A DNA stretch of 64,000 nucleotides from an uncultured Gemmatimonadales bacterium (GCA_963821525.1 CAWGED010000005.1:96001-160000), one strand, 5' to 3'; counted from the stretch's first letter, positions 46,527 to 64,000 are shown. Program-made: numbers and translations. Notes: generated by a model from the letters alone, not told the origin.

Positions 46527-46614
46527 GTTATCTGGAGGTGGGACTTCGATCGTGAAGGGTAGCCCACTGGCGGTGCCGGGGGCTGGGCATACGTTTTAAT
46601 CGGATACCCACTGC

Positions 46615-46643
46615 CCGTCATGGCTCCGTGAGGCAGCCGTGAG
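46615..46643. promoter_or_regulatory. Three heptamer direct repeats at 11-bp period: candidate SARP binding site
   Basis: CCGTCAT-N4-CCGTGAG-N4-CCGTGAG between the divergent kinase and SARP genes. Confidence 0.7.
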
Positions 46644-46679
46644 TTTGGGGGATTTGGGGCCCGGTCTGGGAGTAACTCA

Positions 46680-49582
46680 GTGATCCGTCTGCTTACCTTG
46701 GGGGTCGTTGGTCTTGAGGATCAGGAGCGCCCTGAGTTGCCGCAGCTGCTGCGTCAGCCCAAGGCATTCGCCTTCCTCTGTTACCTCGCCCTGGCCGGTC
46801 CCCCTCGGTTTCGCCGTCGTGATACCGCGATCGCGCTCTTCTGGCCTGAGCTCGACCATGAACACGGCCGGGCGGCACTCCGCCAGACCCTTAGTGTCCT
46901 GCGCCGCTTCCTCGGCGCCGATGCGGTCGTCAACCGTGGCGACGAGGAGATCGGTCTGGACCAGGACAGGATATGGTGCGACGCCGCGGCCTTTCAGGAG
47001 CTGACTGAGGCGGGCGAGGCCGAACGGGCCATGGCGCTGTATCGGGGTGACCTGATCGAGGCACTACATGTCGCCGGAGCAGCGCCAGAGTTCTCGCAGT
47101 GGCTGGACGCTGAGCGGCTCCGACTTCGGCGGCTGGCGCAGGATACGGCATTGCGTTGCGTCGAGGAACACAATAGCGCGGGCGATGCGGCCGGCGCGAT
47201 CCAATGGGCTCGTCGCGCCGTCCAGCTCGAGTCATTCGACGAGCGCGGTTCCGCCGACTCCTCCAACTCCTGGATCAGGCCGGCGAACGGGCCAGTGCCG
47301 TGCAGGAGTATGAGCAGTTCGCGGTGCGACTCGCGCAGGAGCTCGAGGTACGGCCGGCGGTTGAAACCCAGGCCCTGGTCGCGTCGATTCGAGCCCGGCT
47401 TCCGGTGGCCGCCACCGCGGCACCCGCGAATCAGCCCGAGACAGTGGCTTCGCCTGAGCCGAGACGCTCGTCATCGCAGCCAGCTTTGTCCCCGCCTCGT
47501 CCGTTCGATACCCGCCGGTCATTACTCCTCGTCAGCCTCTTCGGGCTCGCCCTCGCCTTGGTACTGGCAGCGAGCCTGCGACGCGGGCGACCCGCCATGC
47601 TCCATCCCAATCTGGTTGCGATCATGCCGTGGAGGGTCAGCGGCGCCGATCCTTCGTTGGCGTACCTTCGCGAGGGGTATGCTCGACCTGTTGGACGGCA
47701 CTCTTACCGGCGATCGCGGACTGCACGCCGCGGACCCGCGAACGACGCTTCGGGCGGTGAATGCAGTGGCATCCTCCTCGAATCAGGATGTACCGCTATC
47801 CACGGCCATGGCGATTGCCCAACAGATTGGCGCAGGCCGAATCATTCAAGGTGCGGTAGTGGGAACTCCCGCTCACCTGACGATCGAAGCCAGCGAGTTC
47901 ACGGCGCCAGACACCCGCCCGACTCTCACGGTTGCTATCACCGGTTCCATCGACAGTCTTCCTCGAATGGTGGAGCGCCTCACGGCGCAACTCCTGGCAC
48001 ATGAGACCAGCGATCCCGAGCAGGTGCAGAGTCTGGCCACGACCTCGCTCCCGGCGCTCAGAGTCTATCTGGAGGGGCGGGCAGCGTTTCGCCGAGGCCG
48101 TTATGGAGAAGCCACCCACGACTTCGGTCAGGCCTTGACCCTCGACTCGACCTTTACCCTAGCGGCGTTGGGTCTCTCCACTGGCTCGTACACGATGGCA
48201 GATATCGCGTTGATTCGAGAGGGGCGGCGGCTCGCCTGGCGCGACTCCAGACGCCTAAGTCCCCGCGACCGTGCGCTGCTCATAGATGTCGTCGGCCCGA
48301 ACTATCCCGGTCCTTCGGACGAGCGAGGGTACCTGGCGGCGAGGCAACGAGCTGTCGTGCTGGCGCCCGAAAGCCCGGAGGCTGCGTATTGGCTGGGCGA
48401 CAGCTTCTTCCACCATGGCCGGCTGCTCGTACTCCCCGATTGGCAGGGTCGGGCAATCGCCGGGTTCGAACGAGCCATCGAGCTGGATTCGGCCTACCTC
48501 GAGCCCTACCAGCATCTGATCGAGATCAAGCTCCAGCAGGGAGACACCATCGGCATTCGGGCTCTCGCCGCCACGTATTTCGCGATGGACTCGGCGGGTG
48601 AGTATCGGGATTTCGTACGCTGGCGAGTTGCCGTCGGGCTTGCCGACTCAGCGGGACTCACGGCGCTGCGTGCCCAGTTCCGGGGGATGTCGACCGAGAG
48701 CCTGTTCCGGATCGCGGCACAAGCCCAAGTCGAGGGGATTGAGCTTAGCGATGCCGAACTGGCGGCGCGCAGTCTTGCGGCCCAGGCGGGCGACGACGGT
48801 CGCTGGACTACGGCGGCTTATGTCAGTGGAGGGCCTGGCGTCAAACGAAGGACGGCCCGCCGCTGCGCTCGCCGCGACGGCATTCATGACCGCGGATCAG
48901 CGCCGGCCGCTCGCGGACCGCTGGTTTCGAGTCGCCGACGCCATCTACACCGACGGCGACAGCATCGCCGCGGAACACGCGATCGGTGAGCTGACACCGC
49001 TCGCGGACGGCCCCACGGAGATTCGACCGGGAGCGTCCGACAGCCAGAACGTGGCGACCTGCGCGGTGGCATTGTGGCGCATGCATCGAGCCGACACCCT
49101 GCACGTCCGCAGCGCCATCCATCGGCTTCGCGGAGTGCCCCCAGCGGAACACAGTGGACTCGGTGTGTGGATGAATGCGTGCGCCACGATTCTCGAGGCA
49201 CAGTTGGCGGCGATGGCCCCGGACGTCCGATACGCTGAGCGCTCTCGTTCGACTGGATTCGCTAGCCGATGCGGGTGCGGACCTGACCTCCCCTCTTCGA
49301 GTGGCCACCACGCTGGTGCTAGCCCACCTAGAGGAACAGCGGGGAAATCTGCCAGCGGCGGTCGCCGCGGTGCGACGACGAGAGAATGAATACAGTCCCC
49401 GGTATCTCTCGTCGCAGCTGGTGGAGGAGGGGCGTCTTGCGACATTGGTCGGAGAGCGGTCAGCGGCTATCCGAGCGTATCAGCACTATCTCGTGCTACG
49501 GGCCAAGCCCGAGGCGTCATTGCAGCCCGAGGTCGACTCCATCCGCGCGGTGCTCGCAAGCCTGCAGCGCGCGAATCATTGA
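46680..49582 (+). CDS. Membrane-anchored SARP/BTAD transcriptional activator with TolB-N-like and TPR region (about 4 frameshifts)
   Basis: IRLLTLG, QPK..AFL.YLA, RD....LFWPE, ALRQTL, D...F, LYRGDL, WLD.ER (wHTH plus BTAD); TM; VAIMP; TPRs. Confidence 0.87.
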
Positions 49583-49932: not shown

Positions 49933-50377
49933 ATGACTCACACTCGCATTGTCCTGATTCTTCTGGCCACCGTGCTCTCGGCCGAGCAAGCTTCTGCCCA
50001 ACGTTTTACCGTGGCTGGCATCGACGACGATGGCGTGGCCCTCCACTTCCTCACGCAGCTCCAGACTGCCCTAGGACAGGAAGACTCAGTGACTATTGCC
50101 GGTCTCGTCAACTACCCGCTCAATGTGTTCGAGAATCATCACGATGATATGGTGAGGAGTCGCGGGGAGCTTTTGGCCCAATACAGATCCGTATTCCTGG
50201 CTCCAGTTCGCCATGCCATCGCTGGTCCAGGATCCCGACAGCCTCTTTGCAAACTGGCGGGGGGTCATGATCGGGAATGGGCAAGTCTGGTATCGGCCGG
50301 TTTGCGACCAGGAGGGCCAAACACATTGCCCGCTACTCATCTACACAGTCAACCGCGACGCGCCACCCGTCCAGTGA
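49933..50377 (+). CDS. Hypothetical exported protein (frameshift near 50222)
   Basis: Signal peptide ending ASA; LVNYPL; shifted frame gives QDPDSLFANWRGVMIGNGQVWY. Confidence 0.7.
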
Positions 50378-50381
50378 TACG

Positions 50382-50433
50382 TGAACGGCCGGGCACATGG
50401 GTAACAGATCAGTCCGGGGACATCGGTAACACT
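50382..50433. mobile_element. Solo IS481-like terminal repeat
   Basis: Two sub-repeats CCGGG(C/G)ACAT(G/C)GGTAACA at 50389-50406 and 50414-50431; no transposase nearby. Confidence 0.6.
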
Positions 50434-50479
50434 CGTCGCCCGCAGGTGAACCGCGGGCCGTCAGACAGGTGACGGGCCG

Positions 50480-51514
50480 CTAGGTCCAGCGAAACAGCTT
50501 CAGCGCCAGCCCGAAGGAAAGGACCAGCCAGACCAGGAGCACGGCGACTTCGGGGAACACTTCCCTCAGCCCGGCGCCTTCGAGCATGACGGCGCGAAGG
50601 GCGTCGTTGGCCGCGGTGAGCGGCAGCGCCTTGATGACTGGCTGCATGACCGCCGGGAAGTGGCTCGAAGAGAAGAACACTCCGGAGAACACCCACATCG
50701 GCAGCATCGCGAGGTTCATCAGTCCCGACGCGGCTTCCACCGTCCGGGGGCGGGCGGCGATGCAGAGGCCCAGGGCCACAAAGCTGAGGCCCGCCACACC
50801 ACAGGTGACCGCGAGAGTGACGAAGGAGCCCCGGACCGGGACATCGAACACCAGCATCCCGAAGATCAGCAGCATCCCCACCGCGAGCACCAGAAGCACC
50901 AGCTGAGACAGGAGGAACGAAGCGAGGTACTCGCTCCGGGACATGGGCGTTGCCGCAAGGCGCTTGAGCAGTTTTCGCTTTCGCGCATCCACGATGGTGA
51001 AGCCCGTCCCCCAGATTCCGCTGCCCATCAGGTTGAATCCAATCAGACCGGGAATCAGAAAATCGATGTAGCGCGATCCGCGCTCCCGCACGATCTGATC
51101 CGCGGTGGTTACCTGGTCGGTCCGCCCCGCCGACTGCTGCACCACGTCGTTGACGCGTTGCCGAGCCATGCGCGCGTCGGGTCGGGTATCGTCGTAGCGG
51201 TAGCGCAGTCCGGTCGAGTCCGGCACGAGCAGGAGGGCGATTTGCCCATTGCGCAGTGCCCGGGCCCCCGCCGTCGAGTCGGGAAAAGCCTCGAGACGAA
51301 TCCCCGAGTCCGCCTTGAGCGCCTCGATCGCCCCGCTCGTCACACCGGGCAGGTGGCCGACCACGATCCGATCCGCCGGGCGATCGCGGAATGCCAGCCC
51401 TAACCCCGCCGCGAGCAGTAGAGGGAAGCCATAGACCCAGAACAAGGCCTCCGGCTCGCGGAAGAATTCCCGAAACCGTACCGAGATCAGCTGCCGCAGG
51501 GAGTCGCTGATCAT
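50480..51514 (-). CDS. ABC-2 type exporter permease
   Basis: REP..LFW.YGFP, RYIDFLIPG, LKRL.ATP, SGVFF, LPLT. Confidence 0.92.
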   Translation of the reverse strand: MISDSLRQLISVRFREFFREPEALFWVYGFPLLLAAGLGLAFRDRPADRIVVGHLPGVTSGAIEALKADSGIRLEAFPDSTAGARALRNGQIALLLVPDSTGLRYRYDDTRPDARMARQRVNDVVQQSAGRTDQVTTADQIVRERGSRYIDFLIPGLIGFNLMGSGIWGTGFTIVDARKRKLLKRLAATPMSRSEYLASFLLSQLVLLVLAVGMLLIFGMLVFDVPVRGSFVTLAVTCGVAGLSFVALGLCIAARPRTVEAASGLMNLAMLPMWVFSGVFFSSSHFPAVMQPVIKALPLTAANDALRAVMLEGAGLREVFPEVAVLLVWLVLSFGLALKLFRWT

Positions 51515-51515
51515 G

Positions 51516-52448
51516 TCACTCCTCCCGCAGCGACCGGCCGGTTAGAGAGACGAACACGTCCTCCAACGTTGCCGTGTGAGTTCTCAGTTCGGCGAATCCG
51601 GTGCCCAGCCGTTCCAGCATGTTCAGCAGTGGGGGCAGGGTCTCGTGCAGTTGGGAGATCTCGAGAAAGATTCGCGCGCCGGCCCGTCGCACCGCGTGCA
51701 CGCCGCCGAGCGCACGAAGCTCATTGTCGTCCGGGGATTTGCCGTCCAGCAGCGTGAACTCGACCACATGCTCCGATCCGAGCGAAGCGATCAATTCGCG
51801 CGGAGTACCCAACGCAATCACCCGGCCGTGATCCACGATGGCGACCCGGTCGCACAGCCGTTCCGCCTCTTCCATGTAGTGTGTGGTGAGCAGCACGGTG
51901 CGGCCCTGCGCCTTGAACTGCTCGATCAGGTCCCAGAGCTGGCGGCGGGATTGGGGGTCGAGACCGGTGGTTGGCTCGTCGAGGAAGAGCAGCTCGGGAT
52001 CGCCCACCAGGGCGCAGGCCAGGGCCATCCGCTGCTTCTGCCCGCCCGAGAGCTGGCCCACTCGGCTGCGCCGCTTCTCGTTGAGCTGCACCTGCCCGAT
52101 GACCGTATCTACCGTCGGCCCGCCGTGGTAGAAGCTGCGGAATAGCCGAAGGGTTTCCTCTACGGTCAGCTTCTCGGCGAGCTGGGTCTCCTGCAGCGAC
52201 ACGCCGATGCGAGGCCGGAGATCGGCAGCGTCGGTCGCCCACTGGCGGCCGAGTATGGTTACGGTGCCGGAGTCGGGCTGGTTGAGACCCTCGCAGATCT
52301 CGACCGTCGTGGTCTTCCCGGCACCATTGGGACCGAGCAGGCCGAAGCATTCACCGGTCCGGATCTCGAGGTCGAGCCCGTCAACGGCGCGAGTCTCCCC
52401 GTAGAACTTCCGGAGCCCGTGGATGGAGACGGCGGGTTGAGCAGGCAC
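51516..52448 (-). CDS. ABC exporter ATP-binding protein
   Basis: GPNGAGKTT, LSGGQKQR, LDEPTTGLDP, TTHYMEEA. Confidence 0.96.
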   Translation of the reverse strand: MPAQPAVSIHGLRKFYGETRAVDGLDLEIRTGECFGLLGPNGAGKTTTVEICEGLNQPDSGTVTILGRQWATDAADLRPRIGVSLQETQLAEKLTVEETLRLFRSFYHGGPTVDTVIGQVQLNEKRRSRVGQLSGGQKQRMALACALVGDPELLFLDEPTTGLDPQSRRQLWDLIEQFKAQGRTVLLTTHYMEEAERLCDRVAIVDHGRVIALGTPRELIASLGSEHVVEFTLLDGKSPDDNELRALGGVHAVRRAGARIFLEISQLHETLPPLLNMLERLGTGFAELRTHTATLEDVFVSLTGRSLREE

Positions 52449-52466
52449 GGTGTCGCGGGGTTTGAG

Positions 52467-52733
52467 TCAGGGGATAAGGGTGCGGGCCTGATTCCAAAAG
52501 AGCACCAGCTCGCGGGTACTTTCGAAGACCCGTACCTCGGGATCCCGGAGCGCCTGGTCCCGCGGCGCGAGCTTGAGATCGAGGTGGGGCCGGGCCGGGT
52601 TCTTCAGGTGGAGGGCGCCAGGAGGCGCTCCCAACCGGATCCGAAACGCCTCGAGCTCCTCGAGGTCATTGGTGGTCGAGAGCACATGAGACCACCCTGG
52701 TGCGTGCAGGTTCTCGCGGTCCATGATCAGCAT
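52467..52733 (-). CDS. Small DUF4031-like protein
   Basis: WSHV....LEELEAF..RLG.......PHLDL pattern. Confidence 0.55.
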   Translation of the reverse strand: MLIMDRENLHAPGWSHVLSTTNDLEELEAFRIRLGAPPGALHLKNPARPHLDLKLAPRDQALRDPEVRVFESTRELVLFWNQARTLIP

Positions 52734-52769
52734 CGTTATAAATTAGTCGTACCTGTGTGAGGAGGCGGC

Positions 52770-53357
52770 GTGGCGGCAGTCCCAGACATGTGGTCCGTCG
52801 GAATTTCCGTCCCGACCTTGGGCGGGGAGCAGGTTGTCGCACGTTGGGACGATGTGGACGTGCTGCTCATCACCAACGCGTCTTCGGCCGAGCAACGGTC
52901 GATGGCGGAGCAGCTGGCCCAGCGTGCCATGTCCGATACGCCGTTCCACACGCCGGCCTATACCAAGGCCGATACTGATCCCGACATCCGGATCTTTGTT
53001 GCGCGGCGAGCAGGGCGGGGCATTGGACTCGCGGTGCTGCGGCCGCGTCCCCGCTGGGGTTGGTGGTCGTGGGATGATTGGGACGATGAGCGGCGTCCTT
53101 CCACCGGGGTGGCGCCGCTCACCTCGTGGACCGTGGAGATCATCTGGACCCTGGCCCAGGCCCAGCAGCGAGGACTTGCGCAGCGCCTGCTGGAACAGGC
53201 GTCCCGAGTCGTGGACCAACCAATTACCTCATTCGCCTGGCGCCGCCCCTTCACGCCATCGGGCGAGGCCTTCGTGCGGCGGCTGTGCCCGGAGGGGTTC
53301 TGGGTGCCGGATGAGGTGACGGTCAGCCGTACGGTGAACGGTCAGCCGTCAGCCTGA
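52770..53357 (+). CDS. GNAT-fold acetyltransferase, Eco1/ESCO-like C-terminus
   Basis: GAGGAGG RBS; VEIIWT...QQRGLAQRLL (acetyl-CoA motif A) and FAWRRPFTPSGEAF. Confidence 0.7.
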   Translation: MAAVPDMWSVGISVPTLGGEQVVARWDDVDVLLITNASSAEQRSMAEQLAQRAMSDTPFHTPAYTKADTDPDIRIFVARRAGRGIGLAVLRPRPRWGWWSWDDWDDERRPSTGVAPLTSWTVEIIWTLAQAQQRGLAQRLLEQASRVVDQPITSFAWRRPFTPSGEAFVRRLCPEGFWVPDEVTVSRTVNGQPSA

Positions 53358-53392
53358 GGATACCTGAGCGAAGCGAGGTCCGAGCGATCCAG

Positions 53393-53445
53393 CTCCTGTC
53401 TCCGTCTCCCGTCTCCTGCGCTCGTACTCTCGTCTCCCGTCTCAC
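53393..53445. repeat. Degenerate heptamer array (CCCGTCT)
   Basis: Begins at the stop codon of the minus-strand gene ending at 53442. Confidence 0.7.
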
Positions 53446-56047
53446 GCTTTAAACCGTGCATGCTTCCACATCAGAGCGCCGAGCTCACGTAGCGTCGCGG
53501 GCTCGGCACCCGCGGCCACATTGGCCGCCGCGATTTCAAACAGAATGCGCCATTGCTCGAACAAGGTGCGATACGCCGTTCCCAGGCTGTTTCGCGGATC
53601 GTAGATACTCGTCGCCTCCGCCGTCACTCCGTTGAGCTCTACCACCTTGAAGTTCCTGCCCGCCCGAAAGTCATCGAGATCCGGCGTCTTGATGTCGTAG
53701 CGGCCGAAGAAGAATCCTTCGTAGCTCTGGCTGATACGGTCAATCGCGGCATCCAGCTCCGCGGTGCGAACCCACGACCCATCAAGGAAGAGGGCCCCGC
53801 GCGAGTGAGTGCCCACATCGACCAGTTGGATGGTCTCTCCTGCCGCGGGGATTGAGGTCAATTCTCCCGCGTTCCGGCGGAGATGGACCGGGGCCATGGA
53901 GACTGCGCGATCGTCGGCCAGGATCAATTCCTCGAGCGTGCGGCGCCCGTCTCCAGTCACCGTGAGGAGCCGCTTCTCCGTCACCGAGAAAATCGTCCCC
54001 TTCGGCTCTCCAGGTTTCCGATAGTAGAAGATTCCGAACTCGAGACCGGGCAGAAATTCCTGAATCAGGACGTCGCCCCTGGCGTGTGTCAGATACTGGG
54101 CGACGTGGTACTCGTCTTTGATCATGGCTACACCCGCTCCACGCTCCCCGATGTCCGGCTTGAGCACGACGGGAAATGCCAATCCGTGTCGCTGCCGGAA
54201 GGTGCGGACGCGACTCAGCTTTTCTTCGTAATCGAGACCTCTGCGGAGGCGTTTGGTGCGCGCCACGAACTCGGCCGAGTGGCGAAGACCCTCCAGGATG
54301 TCCGCCTTGGATTCCCCGACAAAACCGCCGCCGGGGATGGCCGGATTCCCTGCGGTGAAGAGTGTCAGACTGCGGTACTTGAAGGCGAGGTACACCACGT
54401 ACAGGGCGACCGGAGGGTAGAACGCCCAGCGAGGCCAGAACTCCCAGCGGGTGATCCGCCGCCACCGGGAGAGCAGCAGACGACGGCCTCGCCAGGAGAA
54501 GAGAGGCACCACGACCTTGAGCAGCAGAAGAGTGACCAGGGCGGTGATGAGCAGCCAGGTCCAGGCCCGGCTACGCACCGCTCCCAGGACCATCTGCGCG
54601 CCTCTCTCCGACTGCGGCGGAAAACCCGACGAGGAGCGGGGTCCACAGCGCGCAGGCCACGAAGAAGTAGCCGGTGAATCGCCAGAAGCTGGTGTGCAGC
54701 ATTCCCGCCGCGAAGTAGGTGGGAAGCCGGGTGCCGGGCAGTAATCGAGTGGCAAAGACGATCGGCGCCCCGCGCTGGCGGAACCACTGAGAGCTGCGCT
54801 CCACATCCTCGGGCCGGAGAAACCAGCGAAGCGGTGCCCGATAAAGAATGGCCCTGCCCAACCAGCGCCCCGTGAGATAGAGCAGCACGTCTCCCACGAA
54901 AATCCCGACGAAGCAGGCCAGAGTGCCGGGCACTGCCGCGAGTGTTCCCCGTGCGATGAGCAGGCCGGTGGCGACACAGGTCAAATCCTCGGTCACCAGC
55001 GTGGCCGCCGCGATCAGGAACAGGAGAATGACGAGGGCGAGTCCGGCCGTCGGTGGCACCGTGCGGGGATCGAAGGGCCGCGCTGCCTTCTCCAGCCGCT
55101 GAGGCTCCGCCGTGGCGCGAGTCGCCGCCTTGCCAGCCTCGACCCGCTGGATGAAGTCGGTCAGCGGTTCCTCGATCATGTCCGGGTGCTGGAAGACCAT
55201 GAAATGGTCGCCGCGGTACATCACCAGCTCGCTTTGCGGCACCAGGCGCGCGTGCTCGCGCGCGGCGGCGGGCGTCACCAGGGGATCCTTTACGCCGTGG
55301 AGGATCAGCATCGGGCCCGCATAGCGGGACAGGATCTTCCGCAACGGCCGCTGGTCGGTCTCGTAGAAATTCCTGGCGTACTCGACACTCAACATCCCGT
55401 CATCCCAGAGACCGAAATGGGGGACCAGCTCGCGAAGTCCCCAAAGCCCGGCGAGCTGCAGACCGTGGATCGCGTGGTTCAGGTGATACTCGCCGGCCAG
55501 CTCGTATTCCTGGGCACCGATCGAGGAAAGCAGGGTGAGCGAGCGGACCCGGTCGGGCGCCAGTTGGGCGATGTTGAGTGCAACCCCGCCGCCGAGGCTG
55601 AATCCGACGATGTGGGCCTGCTTGATGTGGAGGCTGTCGAGCAGCTGGAGGACGTAGTGCGCGTGTGCGACGATCGAATAGTCGGGAATCTCCCAGGTCG
55701 AGCCGCCGAAACCCGGCAGGTCTGGAGAGATGACCCGGAAGCGATCGGCCAGAGCCGGTCCCAGCGCCCAGAACGCGCCGTTGTCTCCCGGACTGCCGTG
55801 CAGGAGCACTACCGTTGGCCGATCACCCGCGCTGTCGGGGTGCTGATCCCGAAACGCGATATGCACTTCGTCGCGGGTCTCCCGCCCATGATCCACGACG
55901 TGAAGGTTGATCGTTCGCTCGTCACCGTCGGGCCTGCCGTCCCGAGGATGTGAAGCGCGAACAATGTGTGAGGCGATCAGGAGAACGAGATAGACGCCGA
56001 GGAACCAGGCTCCACGGTGCGAGGTACCGGCAGGGTGAGTTACTCAA
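53442..56047 (-). CDS. Fusion protein: alpha/beta hydrolase + DedA/VTT membrane domain + ATP-grasp domain (frameshifts near 56033 and 54590)
   Basis: LLHGSPG, GFSLGG, DPL, DH (hydrolase); EDL, GD..LY.GR, RLLPG.R (VTT); PVVLKPD.GERG.GV, IQEF, GRYD, ELNG (ATP-grasp). Confidence 0.82.
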
Positions 56048-56786
56048 CGGGAGAGAGGAGAGGGTTCCCTGCTGCGAGCGATGCGGGACCTGGCGATTTC
56101 CGTGGTGACACAGGGCGGACCGAGCACATGGTGAATCTCCACCGAATCAGACGTCACGTCCACTCGGCAGAAGCTCCTGGTCTCGGCTACCTCCCGGTGC
56201 ATGCAGGGAGACAGAGGACCGCGCACCGGTAAATGGGAGCGGTGGAAAGCTCTCCAGCACCTCGGGAGTGATCGGCCCGCCAGCCTGGATTTGTGACAGA
56301 GCCGCGCGTCGCGCCGCTTCCGCTTCGCTGGAGAATCCGGAGCTGGTCGCGACCAGTCCCGGCAGCTCCACCGCGCGCTCCACGAGGTTTTCACCGTTCC
56401 ACGCCAGGAGGTAAACCGGCGAGTCGGGCGCCGTGGTCGCAAGAGTGAATGGCTGGTACTCGGTGAGGGCGCTCGCGGCGAGCCGATGGCGCACCAGGTC
56501 CGGGGTTGGAGTTGTTGCCAGCGACCGCACCAGCTGGCCCCTGCTGCGTGGTGCGGTGGTGCGGACCGTCTCGGGCCCATAGCGATTCAGGACTGCGACG
56601 GTCACTCCGAATTCGTTGGCCGCTATCCAGGTACCGCCCTGATCGCTGTCGAGGGGTGCCACGAGGGTGACGCCGTCCCACCGGTGGACCGTCGCCGGAA
56701 CCTCAGGACCGCGAAGCGGGCTCTCGTCCCGATTGAAGAACAGGCTGTAGCCGCCGCGGGACCGGCAGCCAGCTCAGCGTGCACAT
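56044..56786 (-). CDS. NRDE/TANGO2 family protein (2 frameshifts)
   Basis: Starts MCTLSW; FNRDE motif; P.D...GGTWI; TSS; C-terminal MHR..A.T.S. Confidence 0.85.
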
Positions 56787-57301
56787 GCTGCCTGACGTTC
56801 GAGGTACCCCTTGGTGGATGGCGCCAGGCCGAATTCCATTCCGGCCTCGAAACCGTGCTGACGGAGAATCTGCTTGATGAGGGCGCAGTGATGCACGGTG
56901 TGACTCACCAGGAACTGCAGCTCGCGCCGCACCGTGGATCCGCTCCAGTCCGGTTCGTCTTCATCGGCCAGGCTCCTTGTCGAGACCTGGAGCGGCCGTG
57001 ACCCCATCTCTGCCGTGAGCTGGCTGAGCTCGTTTCGAAGGCCGAGTGCGACGTCAATCGCATATCCCCGCTCCCGCTCCAGCCGAGGATCGCGCCCTCG
57101 CGCGTCGTAGTCAATCCGGCCCCCGGCCAGGCCCCCGAGGAGCACCTGATAGTGGTCGAAGACGTGGCGAAAGTGGACTCCAACCGGGGATCCCTCGTCC
57201 GCGCCGGCCGTGGCGTAGGTCTCGTCGTCCATGCGACGCAATACCTCGATACACTGGTCGAGGACATGGCAGTTGCCGACGACTGCTTCCAGTCTCTTCA
57301 C
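56774..57301 (-). CDS. DinB-superfamily protein
   Basis: VG.HFRHVFDHY, IDYDAR.RD, RELQF..SHTVHHCALI, FGLAPST. Confidence 0.85.
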   Translation of the reverse strand: MKRLEAVVGNCHVLDQCIEVLRRMDDETYATAGADEGSPVGVHFRHVFDHYQVLLGGLAGGRIDYDARGRDPRLERERGYAIDVALGLRNELSQLTAEMGSRPLQVSTRSLADEDEPDWSGSTVRRELQFLVSHTVHHCALIKQILRQHGFEAGMEFGLAPSTKGYLERQAACAR

Positions 57302-58078
57302 TCAGACCTCCTGAAGGTTCGTCACCACGGGCACAAAGCGCTCACGCACGGCCTGGTGTAATTGCTCGGCGAGGCGGCGCCGGTCGGATTCCTGGATCGG
57401 TTCTTCTCCGAAGACGACCGTCGCGTGGATCGTCGGTAGCGCAGCGAGGGAGACCAGGTGCGATCCGAAGGTCATGTCTCCCCACCAGCAGACCGCGAGA
57501 TGCGCCGGCGCCGAACCCTCCGGCGTGCGATAGCTGAGGCTCGCGTGGTATACCGGGTGCTCATGCCTCGCGGCCCATTCCAGCAGTGCCGGACGGAACG
57601 GCAGGACATCGGAGCCGGGCGAGCTGGTCGCCTCGGCGAAGAGGACGACACCGTCTCCCGCGGTCACCGCCGCTTCGAGCCGTCCCATGACCCGAATCGT
57701 GTCGCGCGGCGCGTTCCGGTCCACGAAGATGGTGTCCATGAGGCTCACGAGACGGCCGATCACCGGCCATTTCGCCACTTCCTGCTTGGCGACGAAGACC
57801 GCCTCCAATCGAGCGGCCAGGATAACAACGTCGAGATAGCTGAGATGGTTTGCGACCAGGAGGAATGGCGCCTTGGGCGGCAACCCGAGCGGGTCAACCC
57901 GGACGCCGAGGATCCACTCGACGCCTCGGGCCCAGCTCTGGAAGACAAGGCGGCGGACCGGGCGCCGGAGTCGAGCGATGCCAAGCGTGATTCCAACCGC
58001 TGCCAGATAGACCACCAGACCGGTCGCCGTCCAGATGGTCAGCGCCGCTAGCCGGAGCCAGGCACGGAGGAGTCGCAT
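57302..58078 (-). CDS. Lysophospholipid O-acyltransferase (PlsC/OlsA-like)
   Basis: NHLSYLD (HxxxxD), FVAK.E, FVDR, FAEATSS. Confidence 0.92.
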   Translation of the reverse strand: MRLLRAWLRLAALTIWTATGLVVYLAAVGITLGIARLRRPVRRLVFQSWARGVEWILGVRVDPLGLPPKAPFLLVANHLSYLDVVILAARLEAVFVAKQEVAKWPVIGRLVSLMDTIFVDRNAPRDTIRVMGRLEAAVTAGDGVVLFAEATSSPGSDVLPFRPALLEWAARHEHPVYHASLSYRTPEGSAPAHLAVCWWGDMTFGSHLVSLAALPTIHATVVFGEEPIQESDRRRLAEQLHQAVRERFVPVVTNLQEV

Positions 58079-58086
58079 TGAAGCGA

Positions 58087-58938
58087 TCAGCGAAAGAAGA
58101 AGCGGTAGCTGTGCAGGTCCAGCGCCTCGATATCCAGCACTACGAGGAAGTCGATCGTCTTGAACAGGCGGTCAAGCGCGGGACCGCCGCACACCTTGGC
58201 GCCGAGGTTGAGATAGCTCTGGAACAGCGCGGGGATGTGCACCTGCCGGCTCGCGACCAGGCCGGGATCGGCGAGCGTCTCGCAGTTGAGCTCCGGGAGC
58301 GGTGCCGCTGAGAACTCCGGATGCAGCAGGCCGCGTTGCTTCAGGTATTGCAACGTCGCCATGCCCAGCGCAGGCTCCTGGCTCGTGAGCGAACAACATC
58401 CGAAGAGGTAGCGTTTGGCTGTGTGGGTCAGGTACTGCGCCAGTCCCCGCCACAGCAGATTGAGGACTCGGCCGTTTCTGTGCTCCTTCGCGACACAAGC
58501 CCTTCCGACTTCGATCGCGTTCTCAAGGAAGCCGGCCGGAAGCCCCGAGAGATCGTATTCGCCGGCCGAGTAGAAGCCACGTCCCGTGGCGGCCATCTCG
58601 GAGGTCTGCAGCCGGTAGGTCCCCACGGCTTTTCCACTGTCCCGCGACAGAATCATCAGGTGGTGAAACCAGGGATCGAGCTCGTCGTGGTCCCGCCCGG
58701 TCTCGAAGGCGGAATCGAGGCCCTCCCGGAGCTCGAGGTTGAACACCTCGAAGCGGAGCCGCTCGACCGCCTCCAGGTCCTGCGGCGAGCGGGCGAACCG
58801 CATGAAATAACGCCCGGCGATGCTCTCCTCAGTGGGCAGCAGGTCGGGACGGACCGGGTACGACGAGAGTGCAGACCCCTGGTCGGGGGATGTGGTCCGC
58901 TGGGCGGTAGTGGGCCGTCCGGTCTTCAAGAGGCTCAT
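58087..58938 (-). CDS. GNAT N-acyltransferase (OlsB / N-acyl amino acid synthase-like)
   Basis: RLRFEVF, D.DELD, VGTYRL, FYS..EYDL, EVGRACV, LLW.GL, YLFGCCS, YL.LGAKVCG.PA.D..F. Confidence 0.9.
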   Translation of the reverse strand: MSLLKTGRPTTAQRTTSPDQGSALSSYPVRPDLLPTEESIAGRYFMRFARSPQDLEAVERLRFEVFNLELREGLDSAFETGRDHDELDPWFHHLMILSRDSGKAVGTYRLQTSEMAATGRGFYSAGEYDLSGLPAGFLENAIEVGRACVAKEHRNGRVLNLLWRGLAQYLTHTAKRYLFGCCSLTSQEPALGMATLQYLKQRGLLHPEFSAAPLPELNCETLADPGLVASRQVHIPALFQSYLNLGAKVCGGPALDRLFKTIDFLVVLDIEALDLHSYRFFFR

Positions 58939-59167
58939 CCGAGAACTCCGTTCCTGGCGTTTCACGGAGAACGTTCTGAGGCAGGGATTGGTTTCCGGCC
59001 CCTGAATGTGCATCGCACTGCCGACGGCGCCAGAGGCGGTCGAGCATTCTGACCGAACCCTTGCGCGTCCTGCACGATGCTCCAATAGTTGGAGTGGCAC
59101 CGGTGCGTTCTCCAGGCCGCGGAGAGCCTCCGGAAGCCCCCCATCTCCCTCACGGCATGAGGCCGCG

Positions 59168-59443
59168 ATGCAGGCCGATATTCTCGCCATGCTGTCCGGC
59201 GTAGGGTCTTGGACCCTGCGCACCGCGCTCATCCTGTTCGTGCTACTCAATGGGACCGCGGTGGCGCTGGTGGCCATCCGGCGGGACCGCACGATGGTGA
59301 ACCGCTGGACCTCCCGCTGGCTGGCCGCCAATATCGCCCTGCTCGGCGCCGGAGCCGGAATCCCGCTGCTCACCGGCCTGCTCCGAGCCGGCCTCTCGCT
59401 CTTACCGACCTTCTCGGCGGCGGCGGCGACTGGACCGAAGTGA
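59168..59443 (+). CDS. Small membrane protein (2 TM)
   Basis: GAGG RBS; two hydrophobic segments flanking RRDR.MVNRWTSRW. Confidence 0.65.
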   Translation: MQADILAMLSGVGSWTLRTALILFVLLNGTAVALVAIRRDRTMVNRWTSRWLAANIALLGAGAGIPLLTGLLRAGLSLLPTFSAAAATGPK

Positions 59444-59479
59444 TGTCAGCAGGTTCGCGACCGTCTCGAGGAGGTTCCC

Positions 59480-59660
59480 ATGCCCGACGACCCCGCCACC
59501 ACAGATCAAGACCGAGCAGGAGTATCGGGACGCCGTGAAGGAGATGGAGCGGTTGTTCGAAGAGGATCCCGAGCCCGACACGCCGGAGGGCGAGAAGCTG
59601 GAACGGCTGAGTAAGGAAGTGGCCAGGTACGAGGACGAGCACTACCCGATGCGGGAGTGA
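59480..59660 (+). CDS. Small protein matching only the N-terminal domain of HigA-type antitoxins; absent from ORF track, one extra C after ATG
   Basis: GAGGAGG RBS; IKTEQEYRDAVKEMERLFEEDPEPDTPEGEKLERLSKEVARYEDEHYPM*. Confidence 0.75.
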
Positions 59661-59683
59661 CAGAACGTCCATCGCAGACAGCG

Positions 59684-59717
59684 AAGCCCCGCCGATGTAC
59701 CTTGTGGCGGGGCTTTT
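59684..59717 (+). terminator. Intrinsic terminator
   Basis: AAGCCCCGCC-loop-GGCGGGGCTT followed by a short T tail. Confidence 0.7.
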
Positions 59718-59744
59718 CCATCCTTCGAACCCGTGAGGAAGATC

Positions 59745-60596
59745 ATGTCGATCCGTTCAGCGGCCGGCGCCGTACTGCTCCTGGCCGGTCTCGTCAGCTG
59801 CAAGTCCGAAAAACCTGCCCCGGCCACGGCTGATGCGGCAGCCGCTGCTCCGGCTCCGACGATGCTCACCATCACGGCTACTGATTACGCGTTTGAGCTT
59901 CCCGCTCAGGTCCCAGCCGGCGTCGTCACCATCCACCTCGTCAACAATGGAAAAGAAATCCACCAGGCGCAGCTGGTCCGGCTCGAGGATGGAAAGACAG
60001 CAGCCGATTTCGGCGAAGCGATGAAGCAGAAGGGGCCGCCCCCGTCCTGGATCAAGTTCGTGGGGGGCCCCAATGCGGCCGTTCCCGGCGGTTCGGTCGA
60101 TGGCAGTGTCGCACTCGCTCAGGGAAACTATGTCGTCCTGTGTTTCATCCCGTCGCCCGATATGAAGCCGCACATGATGAAGGGGATGATCCATCCGTTC
60201 GAGGTCACTGCTCAGGCGGGAGCGGCGGATCACTTGTCCGGGGAGACCGACACTCTCACGGTTACCGAATATGCGTTCACCCAGACGCCGACCCTCACCC
60301 CGGGGCACCACACCATTCTGGTCCGCAATGCGGGCGCTCAGGACCATGAGGTGGTGCTGGTCAAGCTGCCCCCGGGAGTTACGATCGCGGCTTTCGCCAA
60401 GTGGACCGACACGATGAAGGGTGAACCACCGGGACTGCCGTTGGGTGGCGTGACGGCGCTCGCCAGTGGGGAGAGTGCTGACTTCACCGCGGATCTGACG
60501 GCGGGAGATTACGCCTTCATTTGTTTTGTGCCGGACGCCAAAGACGGGAAGCCGCACTTCGTGCACGGCATGATGACGCAGTTCAAGGTGGGGTAA
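59745..60596 (+). CDS. Lipoprotein with two cupredoxin-like domains
   Basis: Lipobox LVSC; duplicated N.G...H ... G.Y...CF.P..D.KPH..GM (His/Cys/His/Met). Confidence 0.8.
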   Translation: MSIRSAAGAVLLLAGLVSCKSEKPAPATADAAAAAPAPTMLTITATDYAFELPAQVPAGVVTIHLVNNGKEIHQAQLVRLEDGKTAADFGEAMKQKGPPPSWIKFVGGPNAAVPGGSVDGSVALAQGNYVVLCFIPSPDMKPHMMKGMIHPFEVTAQAGAADHLSGETDTLTVTEYAFTQTPTLTPGHHTILVRNAGAQDHEVVLVKLPPGVTIAAFAKWTDTMKGEPPGLPLGGVTALASGESADFTADLTAGDYAFICFVPDAKDGKPHFVHGMMTQFKVG

Positions 60597-60629
60597 CGAA
60601 TCCGACGGGACCGCCTCGGCTCACCGCCG

Positions 60630-61699
60630 ATGCAGCTTCTGGTGATCAACTGCGGCAGCGCCACGCTCAAGTGGAAGCTGTTCCGTTTCACAGGGGGGCT
60701 GCAGGAGGCAATCACCTCGGGTGTTCTGTCCGTGCAAGAGAACGGCTGGCCCGAGGCGGTCACGGCGGCGTTGGCAGCGGTTCCGGTTCGCCCGGATGCG
60801 ATCGTGCACCGGGTGGTGCACGGCGGCGAAGTTGCGCAGGACGTAGTGTCGATCGACGGGGCGGAGTATGACCGGCTTCGGGGTCTCACTTCCCTGGCTC
60901 CGCTCCACAACACGACAGCGCTCGAGGCCATCGAGGCGACCCGGGACCTCGGCGTCCCCCTGTTAGCCGCCTTCGACAGCGCCTTTCACCGAACCCTTCC
61001 GGAGGTCGCTTACCGTTACGCCATTCCTCCCACTCCGGGCGTGCGCCGCTACGGCTTTCACGGGTGGTCACACCGCTACGTGACCGAGCGGTATGCCGAG
61101 CTGAGCGGGAATGCCTCTCCTACCATCATCACGCTTCATTTGGGGAATGGATGTTCCGCTGCAGCCATCCGTCAGGGCCACGCAGTCGACACCTCCATGG
61201 GATTCTCGCCACTGGAGGGCCTTCTCATGGGTACCCGGCCGGGCGATCTCGATCCCGGCGTCGTGCTGCACCTCCTGCGAAAGGGGATGACGCTCGAGGA
61301 GGTGGAATGGGCAGCTCAATCACGACTCCGGTCTGATGGGGCTGGCCGGGACCAACGACATGCAGGAGCTCCTCTCCCGTTCCGATTCGGCGGCGCGATT
61401 TGCGGTAGAGCTTTTCTGCTACCGGGTGCGCAAGTACGTAGGAGCGTACCTCGCTGTGCTGCGAGGGAGCCGAAGCCGTGGTCTTCACCGGCGGGATCGG
61501 GGAGCGCTCCCCTGAGATCCGGCGACGGATTTGCGAGCCGTTGGGGTGGGCAGGCCTCGTTCTCGACGCCGAGAGAAACCTTCGGGGGGACGAGCTGATT
61601 TCGGCGGAAGGATCCCGCCTCGCGGCCTACGCTATTCCCACCGATGAGGAGCGCATCATAGCGCGAGAGGCGGCCCGGGTGCTCGGGGCCGCCTCCTGA
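60630..61699 (+). CDS. ackA: Acetate/propionate kinase (frameshifts near 61312 and 61465)
   Basis: INCGSATLK, HRVVHGG, LAPLHN, FDSAFH, RYGFHG.SH, HLGNGCS, TSMGFSPLEGL.MGTR.GD.DP, VFTGGIGE, PTDEE. Confidence 0.93.
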
Positions 61700-61705
61700 T
61701 CAGGT

Positions 61706-62431
61706 TCAGGGCAATTGCGCTTCAAGCACCGCCTGCCGCTGATTCGCGTCACCATGGTAGGAGGTAGGAGACCCGAGATACCGTTCGAACCAACCTCGGG
61801 CCAGCTCCGCTACCTGGTCCAGTGTGCCAGCCTCTTCGAATAGATGGCCCGCGCCCGGGACGATCACCAGCTGCTTCGCCCGGGGCTGAAGCAGGTCCAG
61901 TGCCTCGCGGTTGAGAGTGATCACCGTAGCGTCGCGTGCCCCGACGATGAGCAGCGTAGGAGCTTTGACCCGTGGCAGGTACATTCCCGCCAGATCGGGC
62001 CGCCCTCCGCGAGACACCACTGCCTGAACCGACTGTGGCCGTAACACCGACGCCACCAGGGCTGCGGCACCGCCGGTGCTTGCCCCGAAGTAGCCGACGG
62101 GAAGAGCTCCAACGTCCGGTTGGGTAGCCACCCAGTCGGTGGCTAAGGCCAGCCGATCCGCCAGGAGCGAAATGTTGAACCGCAGCTCGGCCGTGGCCGC
62201 GTCGAGCACTTCCTCGTCGGCGGTCAGGAGGTCGAACAGCAAGGTGGCAAGTCCCGCTCTCTGGAGATGCTCTGCTACCCGACGGTTTCTCCGGCTATGC
62301 CGGCTGCTTCCGCTGCCATGAGCGAAGAGGACGATTCCTCGTGCCCCGGCGGGCACGACCAGATCACCGTCCAACGTTACTTGCCTGGCTCCGATCTGTA
62401 CCGACCGAGCCTGGTTCTTGAGCCCTGTCAT
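61706..62431 (-). CDS. Dienelactone hydrolase-like alpha/beta hydrolase (PRTase-associated type)
   Basis: FAHGSGSSRHS.RN, GYFGASTG, VSRGGRPDLA, VPGAGHLFEE. Confidence 0.9.
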   Translation of the reverse strand: MTGLKNQARSVQIGARQVTLDGDLVVPAGARGIVLFAHGSGSSRHSRRNRRVAEHLQRAGLATLLFDLLTADEEVLDAATAELRFNISLLADRLALATDWVATQPDVGALPVGYFGASTGGAAALVASVLRPQSVQAVVSRGGRPDLAGMYLPRVKAPTLLIVGARDATVITLNREALDLLQPRAKQLVIVPGAGHLFEEAGTLDQVAELARGWFERYLGSPTSYHGDANQRQAVLEAQLP

Positions 62432-62468
62432 CCGACATTGTCGCATCCCTCGGGACCCGGCCCGGCCG

Positions 62469-63821
62469 TCACAGCGCAGACGGGTAGGTCTCCAGTAACT
62501 CGGGTTCACCCCGTTCCCAGCCCGGCGTACGCTCCAGCGGTTCGACCGCCCGCGTGTGGTCATAATGCAGCACGGCATCAAATTGCCGTGCCAGGACCGC
62601 CGCGAAGTAATGGCTCAAGCGCTCCGTCTCCGGACGGTAGATCACGCCGATGGCGCGTTCGAGCCGCGGCGCCGCGAGAGCCGCGACGGCTTCGTTGGGT
62701 TGGCGAAGGTCAAGAAAGAAGTTCCCGATGCCACAGGCGTGGAAGAGCGCCTCGTAGCTCTCCGGCAGGGCGGGCCGGACAATCTTCCGCTCCGCCTCCC
62801 CGTTCCAGTCGGACGCGGCCGTTACGGTTCCGCTGTAGGTAGTGAAGCCGACAAGGAAGGCTGCTCGACCGAATTGCTCCCGAACCAGCTGCCCCACGTT
62901 CAGTTCGCCGCGATGGGCGCCCATCTCCGTAGCCCGTGCGTCCCCAAGGTGCGAGTTATGGGCCCAGACCACGATCTTGGCGCGCCGGGGATCCGTCTCG
63001 AGAAAAGTGACCAGGGCACGGAGTGTCTCGGCCATGTGCTGATCCCGCAGATTCCAGGAGGCGGCGTGATCCTGGAACATCGCACGGTAGTAGCGTTCGG
63101 CGTTGGCCACGACTTTGGCATTCTGCTCCGCGAAGAACAGGTCATCCGCAGCTACCCGCCCATCGCGCTTGGCGTACTCGGCTGCCGCTGCGCGGAGTTC
63201 GACCAGCTGATTGATGACGGCGGTCTCACACGAGGGCGCGAGGCCAAGAGTCGTCGCGTAGCCGTAAGTCTGGGGGTCCCCGCCGAAATGTTCGAAGCAT
63301 GCGTAGCGATCCGCCGCCCTCACCGCCGCGTCGGGATCCACCACTTTCAGGTATTCGATCACCGCGTGCATCGACGCATGCAGACTGTACAGATCAAGCC
63401 CATAGAACCCCACCTTGAAAGCCTCGGAGTCTCGTGAGTCGTTGTGTTCCCGCAGCCAGCCCACGAAATCCAGCACATCCGCATTACGCCACATCCATTG
63501 GGGGAACCGCAGGAAGCCACCCAACGCCTCCGCGGAGTCGGGGTCGCCCGACCGCCCCCGGACGTACCGGTTGACCCGATAGGCATCCGGCCAGTCGGCT
63601 TCGACTGCCACTGCACTGAAGCCCTTCTCGCGAATCAGGCGCTTGGTGATTTCAGCCCGGACCCGATAGAAGTCGTGGGTGCCATGCGAGGCCTCGCCCA
63701 GGAGCACCAACCGCGCGTCTCCCACGGCGCCCAGCAGGGCATCGAAGTCGGCCGTCGTCCCCTGGAGCCCACACGCGGCCGAGCGAAGTGTGGGGATGAG
63801 CCGTTCAGTTCCGCGCCGCAT
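62469..63821 (-). CDS. Erythromycin esterase family protein
   Basis: LLGEASHGTHDFY, EADWPD, FP.WMWRN, GLDLYSL, WNLRD.HM, WAHNSHLGDARAT, RAIGVIY. Confidence 0.92.
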   Translation of the reverse strand: MRRGTERLIPTLRSAACGLQGTTADFDALLGAVGDARLVLLGEASHGTHDFYRVRAEITKRLIREKGFSAVAVEADWPDAYRVNRYVRGRSGDPDSAEALGGFLRFPQWMWRNADVLDFVGWLREHNDSRDSEAFKVGFYGLDLYSLHASMHAVIEYLKVVDPDAAVRAADRYACFEHFGGDPQTYGYATTLGLAPSCETAVINQLVELRAAAAEYAKRDGRVAADDLFFAEQNAKVVANAERYYRAMFQDHAASWNLRDQHMAETLRALVTFLETDPRRAKIVVWAHNSHLGDARATEMGAHRGELNVGQLVREQFGRAAFLVGFTTYSGTVTAASDWNGEAERKIVRPALPESYEALFHACGIGNFFLDLRQPNEAVAALAAPRLERAIGVIYRPETERLSHYFAAVLARQFDAVLHYDHTRAVEPLERTPGWERGEPELLETYPSAL

Positions 63822-64000
63822 AGCGTTTCTCCACATCCCCAGAGGCTCGTTGCTGGAGTGCGGCCCGGACTTCCTCATCGCTCGTCTGCTCGAAATTGTG
63901 GTACCACTCGCCGACGGCCCGGAACGGCTCGGGCACGTGCCACGGCGGCGCAGCGGTCGGCCACCCGTCCCAGGGCATGCCATGCGCTCTCCGACATCAC
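63805..64000 (-). CDS. Phosphoribosyltransferase family protein, C-terminal end (5' part outside the window)
   Basis: Manual translation: PEPFRAVGEWYHNFEQTSDEEVR. Confidence 0.75.

Follow-up and report, generated by a model that had tools for sequence, protein, structure and literature searches.

The window analysed here is a 64,000-nt stretch of DNA from an uncultured Gemmatimonadales soil bacterium (GCA_963821525.1, CAWGED010000005.1:96001-160000) and forms part of contig C5 of a 4.3-Mb genome that is 81% complete (G000). Five minus-strand genes at positions 53442..58938 encode an OlsB-like GNAT N-acyltransferase, an OlsA-like PlsC-family O-acyltransferase, a DinB/YfiT-fold protein, an NRDE/TANGO2-family protein, and a fusion of a serine hydrolase, a DedA domain and an ATP-grasp ligase. 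An earlier note on this DNA had linked these genes to the synthesis of an aminolipid. The link is supported because the gene order is conserved, the genes co-occur genome-wide, the OlsB/OlsA pair is replaced by a fused OlsF synthase in other loci, and VCA0646, the OlsF in the Vibrio cholerae form of the gene set, has been shown to make ornithine lipid. The gene set can be seen as a variant of aminolipid synthesis and modification that stands a real chance of yielding a new class of lipid.

The genes lie head to tail: 8 bp separate the first two, the second and third abut, and the following pairs overlap by 13 bp and by 4 bp (TTGA), respectively. Pfam and motif evidence places all five tightly packed genes, of the families named in the earlier note, at this location. 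Each is single-copy in the genome, distant generic paralogues aside, and the OlsB-like copy is the only one found. The literature examined, which included few subscription papers, gave no description of a role for the ligase family or of the gene set as a pathway.

Occurrence of the gene set across phyla

The loci compared were the best 80 of at least 589 confirmed candidate loci, 47 of these 80 having both flanks, together with 32 Bacteroidota, 8 Pseudomonadota and 20 Vibrio loci picked across the score range. (A first clustering of neighbours gave mostly shadow open reading frames, and DoxX was its sole yield.) Of 11 relatives, 10 show the same five-gene order, and the remaining contig is too short to tell. 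The 47 flanked loci of the best 80 display DedA in 47, DinB in 45, the hydrolase in 43, an OlsB-type enzyme in 42, OlsA in 39, NRDE in 34, DoxX in 21 and YHS in 3. All six domains of the window's operon other than the ligase are found within 6.5 kb of the ligase in 30 of the 47, and 28 of these are Gemmatimonadota; by our own arithmetic the chance of one gene lying so near the ligase is about 0.3% in genomes of 4 Mb.

The six domains follow the window's order in 39 Gemmatimonadota loci, in L045 (Acidobacteriota), in L099 and L100 (Chloroflexota) and in L111. The exact five-gene form is thus concentrated in Gemmatimonadota, with single cases in Acidobacteriota and Chloroflexota, and the co-occurrence across phyla that the earlier note had proposed as a check was borne out by these outside cases. 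Loci with OlsB, OlsA, DinB and a DedA-ligase are also present in Pseudomonadota, Rhodothermota, Myxococcota and Binatota. One further record, L067, is labelled Heliobacteriaceae; its ligase is nearly identical to Blastocatellia copies, and it may be mis-binned.

A profile search found the ligase in 60 of 251 Bacteroidota, 9 of 301 Pseudomonadota and 24 of 201 Gemmatimonadota genomes, where the first two samples are the genomes of the phylum of one Bacteroidota and one gammaproteobacterial locus, respectively. A single protein query found it in 122 of 261 genomes of the genus Vibrio. Marinomonas mediterranea also has a ligase homologue (P0377). At E 1e-30 or better, 1213 clusters (50% identity) match the ligase.

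Three forms of the gene set correspond to three groups on a quick tree of 83 of the 140 loci (the other 57, mostly Gemmatimonadota, Vibrio and Bacteroidota-fusion entries, were thinned out; the tree has long branches and a midpoint root). The first form has a DedA-fused ligase with OlsB and OlsA, or with OlsF in L065 and L083. The second, in Vibrio, consists of DedA, ligase, DinB, NRDE, YHS, (DoxX) and OlsF. The third, in Bacteroidota, has a stand-alone ligase with YHS, DoxX, DinB, NRDE and LysE, and no acyltransferase nearby. A fused OlsF adjoins the ligase, in place of OlsB and OlsA, in L065, L083, L136 and 17 of the 20 chosen Vibrio loci. On the tree L065 and L083 occupy separate subclades of the fusion clade, away from the Vibrio clade.

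The 106 loci with both flanks show DedA together with an acyltransferase in 76, neither in 21, DedA only in 8 and an acyltransferase only in 1. LysE occurs only where DedA and the acyltransferase are both missing (11 of 11). One genome (G208) has two ligase paralogues, L147 and L148, one with LysE only and the other with YHS, DoxX, DinB and NRDE.

The genome-wide distribution in Gemmatimonadota displays a hierarchy. Among the same 201 genomes, the ligase is present in 24, an OlsB orthologue in 30 and the DinB subfamily in 20. All 24 ligase genomes have the OlsB orthologue, those with split operons included, and six genomes have OlsB without the ligase; all 20 genomes with the DinB subfamily have the ligase. 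The ligase genomes are kin (9 of 98 genera, in two families), and the co-occurrence is therefore not an independent statistic. In three genomes (G988, G070 and G021) the operon is split over contigs, yet its parts are kept. Four loci of genus g45 have the OlsB/OlsA pair (both genes labelled in three, OlsA only in the fourth) with no DinB, NRDE or ligase nearby, and genus g87 has an OlsB-OlsA-fusion arrangement that lacks DinB and NRDE. Two small searches (five genomes), run without a positive control, gave no DinB or NRDE in three near-complete g87 genomes; the DinB profile (A3) that was empty in these searches matched 20 of the 201 genomes of the phylum.

Presence is nested: OlsB and OlsA, then the fusion, then DinB, then NRDE. 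Such nesting is compatible with a role of DinB and NRDE on the ligase product, for whose formation they are not needed. The five-step assembly line of the earlier note is not a fixed one, and an obligatory line is rejected on the g87 genomes that keep OlsB, OlsA and the fusion and in which the two small searches found no DinB or NRDE, and on loci with DinB only. The note had also expected a pathway context for NRDE and DinB; both are tied to the ligase gene set, in which they look accessory rather than obligatory. The wider module includes genes for a YHS (seleno)protein and DoxX, which are not visible in the window's operon. The YHS protein scores above the cut-off of the (seleno)protein model NF041384 and its Cys is invariant; a sequence search of the PDB with it gave weak matches or adenylate-kinase-9 YHS repeats only. 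The G000 genome has its DoxX orthologue (202 bits) and its YHS gene, which is frameshifted, at C5:828651-829484 and C5:865975-866584, about 0.7 Mb from the operon. In many relatives, unlike in G000, DoxX directly follows the fusion.

The Vibrio form can be matched to a published operon. P0373, named a V. cholerae 'D-alanine--D-alanine ligase' at NCBI, is 98% identical to the ligase of L151 and L152. The cores of three published primers, those for VCA0646 and for the region upstream of VCA0649, occur without mismatch in L151 and L152, where they fall on the start of OlsF and around that of DinB; a VC0489 primer has no match in these two loci. Because of the primer positions, VCA0649 is identified from sequence as DinB and VCA0646 as OlsF, and the NRDE and YHS genes between them are VCA0648 and VCA0647 by position, with the ligase and DedA just upstream. 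According to PMC12186959, ornithine lipid is produced by VCA0646 both in E. coli and at low salt, and VCA0646 adds polymyxin tolerance. A separate study describes vca0646-0649, in the part available, as a HapR-activated operon 'of unknown function' and reports that overexpressed 0646 and 0647 promote colony cell death (10.1101/2024.09.23.614608). Family names are now available for the genes of this operon. The window resembles it in having DinB, NRDE, the ligase and DedA, and differs in its split OlsB and OlsA, its three-domain fusion and the lack of YHS in the operon.

The encoded proteins

The OlsB-like protein (58087..58938, minus strand) has a 283 aa chain length and matches PF13444 (E 5e-28); the OlsA-like protein (57302..58078, minus) has 258 aa, matches PF01553 (E 1e-19) and displays the HxxxxD motif as NHLSYLD. 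An adjacent PF13444 N-acyltransferase and PF01553 O-acyltransferase with HxxxxD is the pattern of an OlsB/OlsA pair, and it is found here. The scores with the equivalog models, which were built on alphaproteobacterial members, are 137 bits against a cut-off of 350 for OlsB (NF052554) and 146 bits against 300 for OlsA (NF052552). The VCA0646-type OlsF in L131 is likewise under its own cut-off (435 against 620 bits). The OlsB-like sequence shares 27% identity with the GNAT half of the VCA0646-type OlsF and gave no match in a PDB sequence search. Ornithine would be the presumed substrate of the window's enzyme. In five loci (L043, L090, L096, L102 and L179) recurring genes are found upstream of OlsB, which seem to encode a ferric-reductase-type membrane protein with a Rieske domain.

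The fusion (53442..56047, minus) shows matches to PF00561 (E 2e-33) and PF09335 (E 8e-22) and a weak RimK ATP-grasp match (E 1e-3). Its parts, whose boundaries are approximate, are an N-terminal membrane anchor with a predicted periplasmic alpha/beta serine hydrolase (55050..56047, minus, with a TTG start at 56047), a DedA/VTT domain (54500..55049, minus) and a predicted cytoplasmic ATP-grasp amide ligase of the GshF/cyanophycin-synthetase type (53442..54499, minus). Full-length fusions are frequent, and among the 120 best long matches most have 820–910 aa and both PF00561 and PF09335.

The ligase was examined in an AF2 model of the G001 orthologue (89% identical, pLDDT 91.4). The best Foldseek matches are GshF (3ln6, E 2e-11) and CphA2 (7ta5, E 4e-11), with which it has a large lid insertion in common; the best match with VIA is LysX/ArgX (Z 15.6, rmsd 3.4, 217 aligned), and LysX/ArgX, CphA and VanA lie within about 2 Z units of one another. 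TIGR02068 matches weakly. An alignment of homologues shows K104, Q137, E144 and D259 to be invariant and R257, E278 and N280 to be at least 90% conserved; the conserved Lys, Glu and ExN residues presumably bind ATP and Mg. The domain is thus predicted to be an ATP-grasp fold with an intact amide-ligase active site. GshF and cyanophycin synthetase both extend the carboxyl of an amino acid with another amino acid. The window's ligase differs from them in having only 15–19% identity, in its membrane anchor and in the lack of a gamma-glutamylcysteine ligase or Mur domain. A search of the ESM Atlas gave generic ATP-grasp and alpha/beta-hydrolase clusters and nothing more specific.

A D-Ala-D-Ala ligase (Ddl), with a role in peptidoglycan, was considered and rejected: GshF and CphA rank above Ddl in Foldseek, where identity to Ddl is 11–16%, PF07478 is below its cut-off, and the gene context is a different one. 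The database label 'D-Ala-D-Ala ligase' for this widespread family, which is tied to aminolipid synthases and a flippase, is therefore wrong.

Next to the membrane the ligase carries an aromatic helix (WEFWP). This WE(F/Y)WP-type helix is retained in 26 of 27 stand-alone ligase copies, which suggests a membrane substrate. Two DedA-ligase fusions, L164 (G811) and L136 (G349), lie inside the otherwise unfused Vibrio-type clade, and the fusion therefore seems to have arisen more than once.

The DedA domain has acidic residues at re-entrant helix 1 (SEDL) and two Arg at re-entrant helix 2 (RxxPGTR), in agreement with the COG0586-type definition; its score with the UptA model NF052604 is 54 bits, below the cut-off. 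The acidic motif and the two-Arg motif of DedA proteins have been tied to anionic lipid head groups (PMC10127716, available part). By its motifs the domain is of the flippase type, and lipid flipping is a predicted activity. The earlier note's reading of ATP-grasp amide-bond chemistry combined with a DedA flippase is thus in line with the active site of the one domain and the motifs of the other.

The hydrolase displays an HG oxyanion motif, a Ser (GFSLG), an Asp (KDPLV) and a His (GDHF), which are kept in 171, 166, 175 and 172, respectively, of 194 full-length homologues. On average, 3.8 basic residues precede the N-terminal anchor and 1.4 follow it; 3.3 follow the DedA helix at 374–392, and the last helix is followed by 3.2 and then the ligase. 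From the hydropathy and the distribution of Lys and Arg around the helices, the serine hydrolase would be outside and the ligase inside. In all 11 loci with a triad-less fusion (L112-L122) a separate, divergently transcribed alpha/beta hydrolase (GxSxG) stands beside OlsB; it may be a replacement for the lost triad, or just local synteny.

The DinB protein (56774..57301, minus, 175 aa; PF12867, E 6e-10) belongs to a distinct subfamily with conserved His (H43, H46, H134, H137 and H138) and Arg (R45, R68 and R126). The AF2 model of the G001 orthologue (pLDDT 94.7) shows a four-helix DinB/YfiT fold with a metal-binding His set. The best fold match is DR0053 (Z 16.0, rmsd 2.4, 138 aligned). The thiol S-transferases BstA (Z 11.8) and mycothiol S-transferase (Z 11.7) score lower than uncharacterised DinB proteins (Z 16.0–12.4). 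A complex prediction for the ligase with DinB scored 0.00, which gives no answer and counts neither way.

The NRDE protein (56044..56786, minus) has a Met-Cys start and an NRDE motif (PF05742, E 5e-9), and C2, R19, D20 and E21 are invariant in 24 of 24 sequences. Its profile matches TANGO2, a human disease protein (8sv7/9bwa, E 3e-8), in an alignment that covers the N-terminal half and ends at position 121. A conserved Ser-Ser lies beyond the aligned half, and the stretch with the TANGO2 oxyanion residues Asn157/Lys166 falls past the alignment end. It shares Cys2 and the NRDE motif with TANGO2/HtpA and is a distant subfamily of it. In the parts of the publications available, TANGO2 is proposed to be a Cys-Ntn hydrolase that resembles acid ceramidase and bile-salt hydrolase and whose substrate is not known (PMC13044924), acyl-CoA binding through NRDE is shown (PMC11867700), and a role in heme trafficking, as claimed for the Shewanella homologue, is argued for (PMC10470608). 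DinB, as a metal-binding protein, and NRDE, as a Cys2 Ntn amidase or transacylase, are probably accessory enzymes whose substrate is the ligase product, in which NRDE most likely breaks or exchanges one of the amide bonds.

Of the 106 loci, 72 have both NRDE and DinB, 23 have DinB only and none has NRDE only. Another comparison, of NRDE with the fused hydrolase domain in 59 loci, shows both in 33, the hydrolase only in 22, NRDE only in 2 and neither in 2. Strict substitution of one hydrolase-type enzyme for the other is not supported, since 33 of the 59 loci have both.

The NRDE and fusion reading frames are disrupted in the window by four single extra bases, near 56761 and 56253 in NRDE and near 56031 (hydrolase part) and 54604 (DedA part) in the fusion. 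All four are absent in two short-read contigs, X1 and X12, and three in a third, X5, which has no coverage of 54604; these contigs, from three studies, are 98–99% identical to the window. The extra bases are also absent in 4 of 4 same-genus genomes, and because of both observations the frameshifts are read as assembly errors, not mutations. In the relative G001 every frame of the operon (L020:6049-11541) is open, with an intact 867-aa fusion and a 246-aa NRDE. The possibility that NRDE and the fusion are pseudogenes is rejected on these data.

The proposed lipid pathway and its alternatives

The genes can be arranged in a pathway, which is given an even chance of being correct. OlsB and OlsA would form an ornithine-type acyloxyacyl lipid, and the cytoplasmic ATP-grasp domain would join an amino acid or amine onto its free carboxyl. 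The DedA domain would then flip the extended lipid outward, where the serine hydrolase would take off either an acyl chain or the group that was joined on. The fusion would be a unit for modifying, flipping and trimming the lipid in one chain, with DinB and NRDE as accessory proteins. The ligation and its direction, the topology and the flipping are predictions from the features described above.

Parts of this scheme resemble known systems. The OlsB/OlsA and OlsF pathway, including VCA0646, which is in the same gene set, has the GNAT PF13444 and PlsC-type enzymes (PMC12186959, PMC12971839). The window differs in its fusion of ligase, DedA and hydrolase, in DinB and NRDE, and in its sub-cut-off scores; the available part of PMC12971839 does not mention these extra genes. 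In the same part, the ATP-dependent transfer of taurine to the carboxyl of ornithine lipid (cerilipin) is described and the gene is stated to be unknown, and no enzymes are assigned to the steps that add serine and ornithine to form Ser-Gly and Orn-Ser-Gly lipids. The cerilipin transferase is comparable by its chemistry only, with no sequence to compare: it forms an amide on an aminolipid carboxyl with ATP, as predicted for the window's ligase.

MprF systems with a periplasmic hydrolase are similar in that a head group is changed at the inner face, flipped, and removed outside. AhyD and AcvB are periplasmic aminoacyl-lipid hydrolases of this kind. MprF systems are tRNA-dependent and act on phosphatidylglycerol, whereas the window has an ATP-grasp enzyme, a presumed aminolipid substrate and all three predicted activities in one chain. 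Fusions of DedA to lipid enzymes, MprF-type synthase domains included, have been described (PMC10193950, available part).

Extended aminolipid head groups with taurine, Ser-Gly and Orn-Ser-Gly have been known for decades. If the proposed pathway is correct, the operon makes an undescribed membrane lipid, and a bacterial TANGO2 homologue gains a candidate fatty-amide substrate. The orphan head-group ligase, the TANGO2 substrate and the role of vca0647-0649 become testable.

Several observations weigh against the pathway. An extended lipid of this kind has been seen in no source so far. In V. cholerae at low salt, [14C]ornithine label was found only in plain ornithine lipid and at the origin of the thin-layer plate (PMC12186959, available part). 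There VCA0646 is served by a promoter of its own, and the one upstream of VCA0649 is weak and not induced; the synthase can therefore work apart from the rest of the module. In the available part of 10.1101/2024.09.23.614608, deletion of vca0646-0649 had no effect on colony cell death, and the overexpression effect did not need VCA0648 or VCA0649. The scores of the window's OlsB and OlsA lie far under the equivalog cut-offs, so that ornithine is not established as the substrate. Among full-flank Bacteroidota loci, 19 of 31 have no acyltransferase near the ligase and often keep DinB, NRDE, YHS and DoxX; a PF13444 gene is found at another place in five such genomes, as a weak match in two, and the family is so widespread that this says little. 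Of 12 fusions in the phylum Bacteroidota, 11 have lost the hydrolase triad, and Vibrio lacks the domain. The topology of the fusion comes from averaged hydropathy and Lys/Arg bias alone.

A more specific form of the pathway, considered unlikely as a whole, has the fusion as a machine that loads, flips and releases a membrane-anchored aminoacyl ornithine lipid, possibly cysteinyl and glutathione-like. DinB and the TANGO2 homologue would be responsible for its conjugation and turnover, and the Cys/Sec YHS protein, which is exported, would service it. If true, the missing ATP-dependent aminolipid ligase family would have a name, vca0647-0649 would be explained, and a TANGO2-family amidase would have its first natural substrate class.

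A rather unlikely alternative is that the acyltransferases just make plain ornithine lipid and share their regulation with a distinct envelope-stress module (ligase, DinB, NRDE, YHS and DoxX), the substrate of which would be a soluble metabolite; the lipid genes would then be passengers. The Bacteroidota branch, where the module is found with LysE, Crp, AhpC/TSA and DM13 genes and without an acyltransferase, agrees with this, as do the own promoter and plain product of VCA0646 and the occurrence of OlsB and OlsA alone in genus g45. Against it, OlsB is kept in all 24 ligase genomes of the Gemmatimonadota sample, unlinked cases included, two different synthase types occupy the same neighbourhood, and the ligase is fused to DedA and retains a membrane helix.

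A lipid-anchored thiol cycle was also considered. The ligase would add cysteine or a similar amine to the aminolipid, DinB would conjugate electrophiles and NRDE would release the conjugate, DedA or LysE would export it, and the exported Cys/Sec YHS protein and DoxX would re-reduce the system. The nearest ligase fold is that of a bifunctional glutathione synthetase, DinB shares its fold with the bacillithiol and mycothiol S-transferases, the YHS protein has the invariant Cys noted above, redoxin, DM13 and Crp genes are neighbours in Bacteroidota, and DinB and NRDE occur only alongside the ligase in the phylum sample and in the loci. The DinB fold, however, is multifunctional and its best matches are uncharacterised, YHS and DoxX are outside the window's operon and YHS is near few of the fusion loci, and a cysteine-extended ornithine lipid was not found in the literature examined. 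The cycle is judged improbable.

The order or direction of the steps could be reversed, with the ligase making a soluble dipeptide or amide head group for OlsB, or activating a fatty acid to acylate the delta-amine of ornithine lipid. ATP-grasp enzymes do make soluble dipeptides (LysX/ArgX, Ddl and L-amino-acid ligases are among the top VIA matches), export by LysE suits a soluble product, and an outward hydrolase would suit the removal of a third acyl chain. This scheme is quite improbable, as VCA0646 accepts ornithine itself when no ligase is present, a lipid substrate is the better fit for the membrane helix and the fusion to DedA, and a 2022 review, in the part available, knows of no ATP-grasp enzyme that makes N-acyl aromatic amino acids (PMC8762209). 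Very improbable is a role of the three downstream genes mainly in recycling ornithine lipid (by esterase, amidase and flippase, with the ATP-grasp domain re-activating the pieces): it would suit the two hydrolase-type enzymes (serine hydrolase and Ntn amidase) and the DedA domain, whose acidic and basic motifs are those of the UndP-recycling subfamily, but the constant member of the gene set is the ligase, and either hydrolase may be missing.

Flanking sequences

A search with Rfam at gathering thresholds over positions 50000–64000 gave no matches, and a promoter and terminator scan gave nothing above shuffled sequences. A purine-rich repeat tract with GAGACGG-like units (53441–53390) lies directly past the last stop; no terminator was called there. 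An RNA run (X15) yielded short contigs over parts of all the genes, with a stretch of DinB and the larger part of the ligase left uncovered; carried-over DNA may be their source.

More apparent frameshifts are present at 44346–49582 and 60630–61598, consistent with an indel-prone assembly; the affected open reading frames presumably encode a Ser/Thr kinase, a BTAD-type regulator and an acetate-kinase-like protein.

Upstream of the operon, positions 59168–59443 (plus strand) encode a small divergent membrane protein of 91 aa with no Pfam match and 90–99% conservation within the genus. It also occurs in three other Gemmatimonadales loci (L046, L047 and L061), again upstream of the operon or of what remains of it, and is a possible regulator or partner. 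Past the operon are a convergent GNAT gene (52770–53357, plus) with a weak ESCO-type PF13880 match, which is also present in G001, and a DUF4031-like open reading frame (52467–52733, minus). An ABC-2 type transporter pair follows on the same strand as the operon (50480–52448, minus), and many Gemmatimonadales loci have a comparable pair after the operon.

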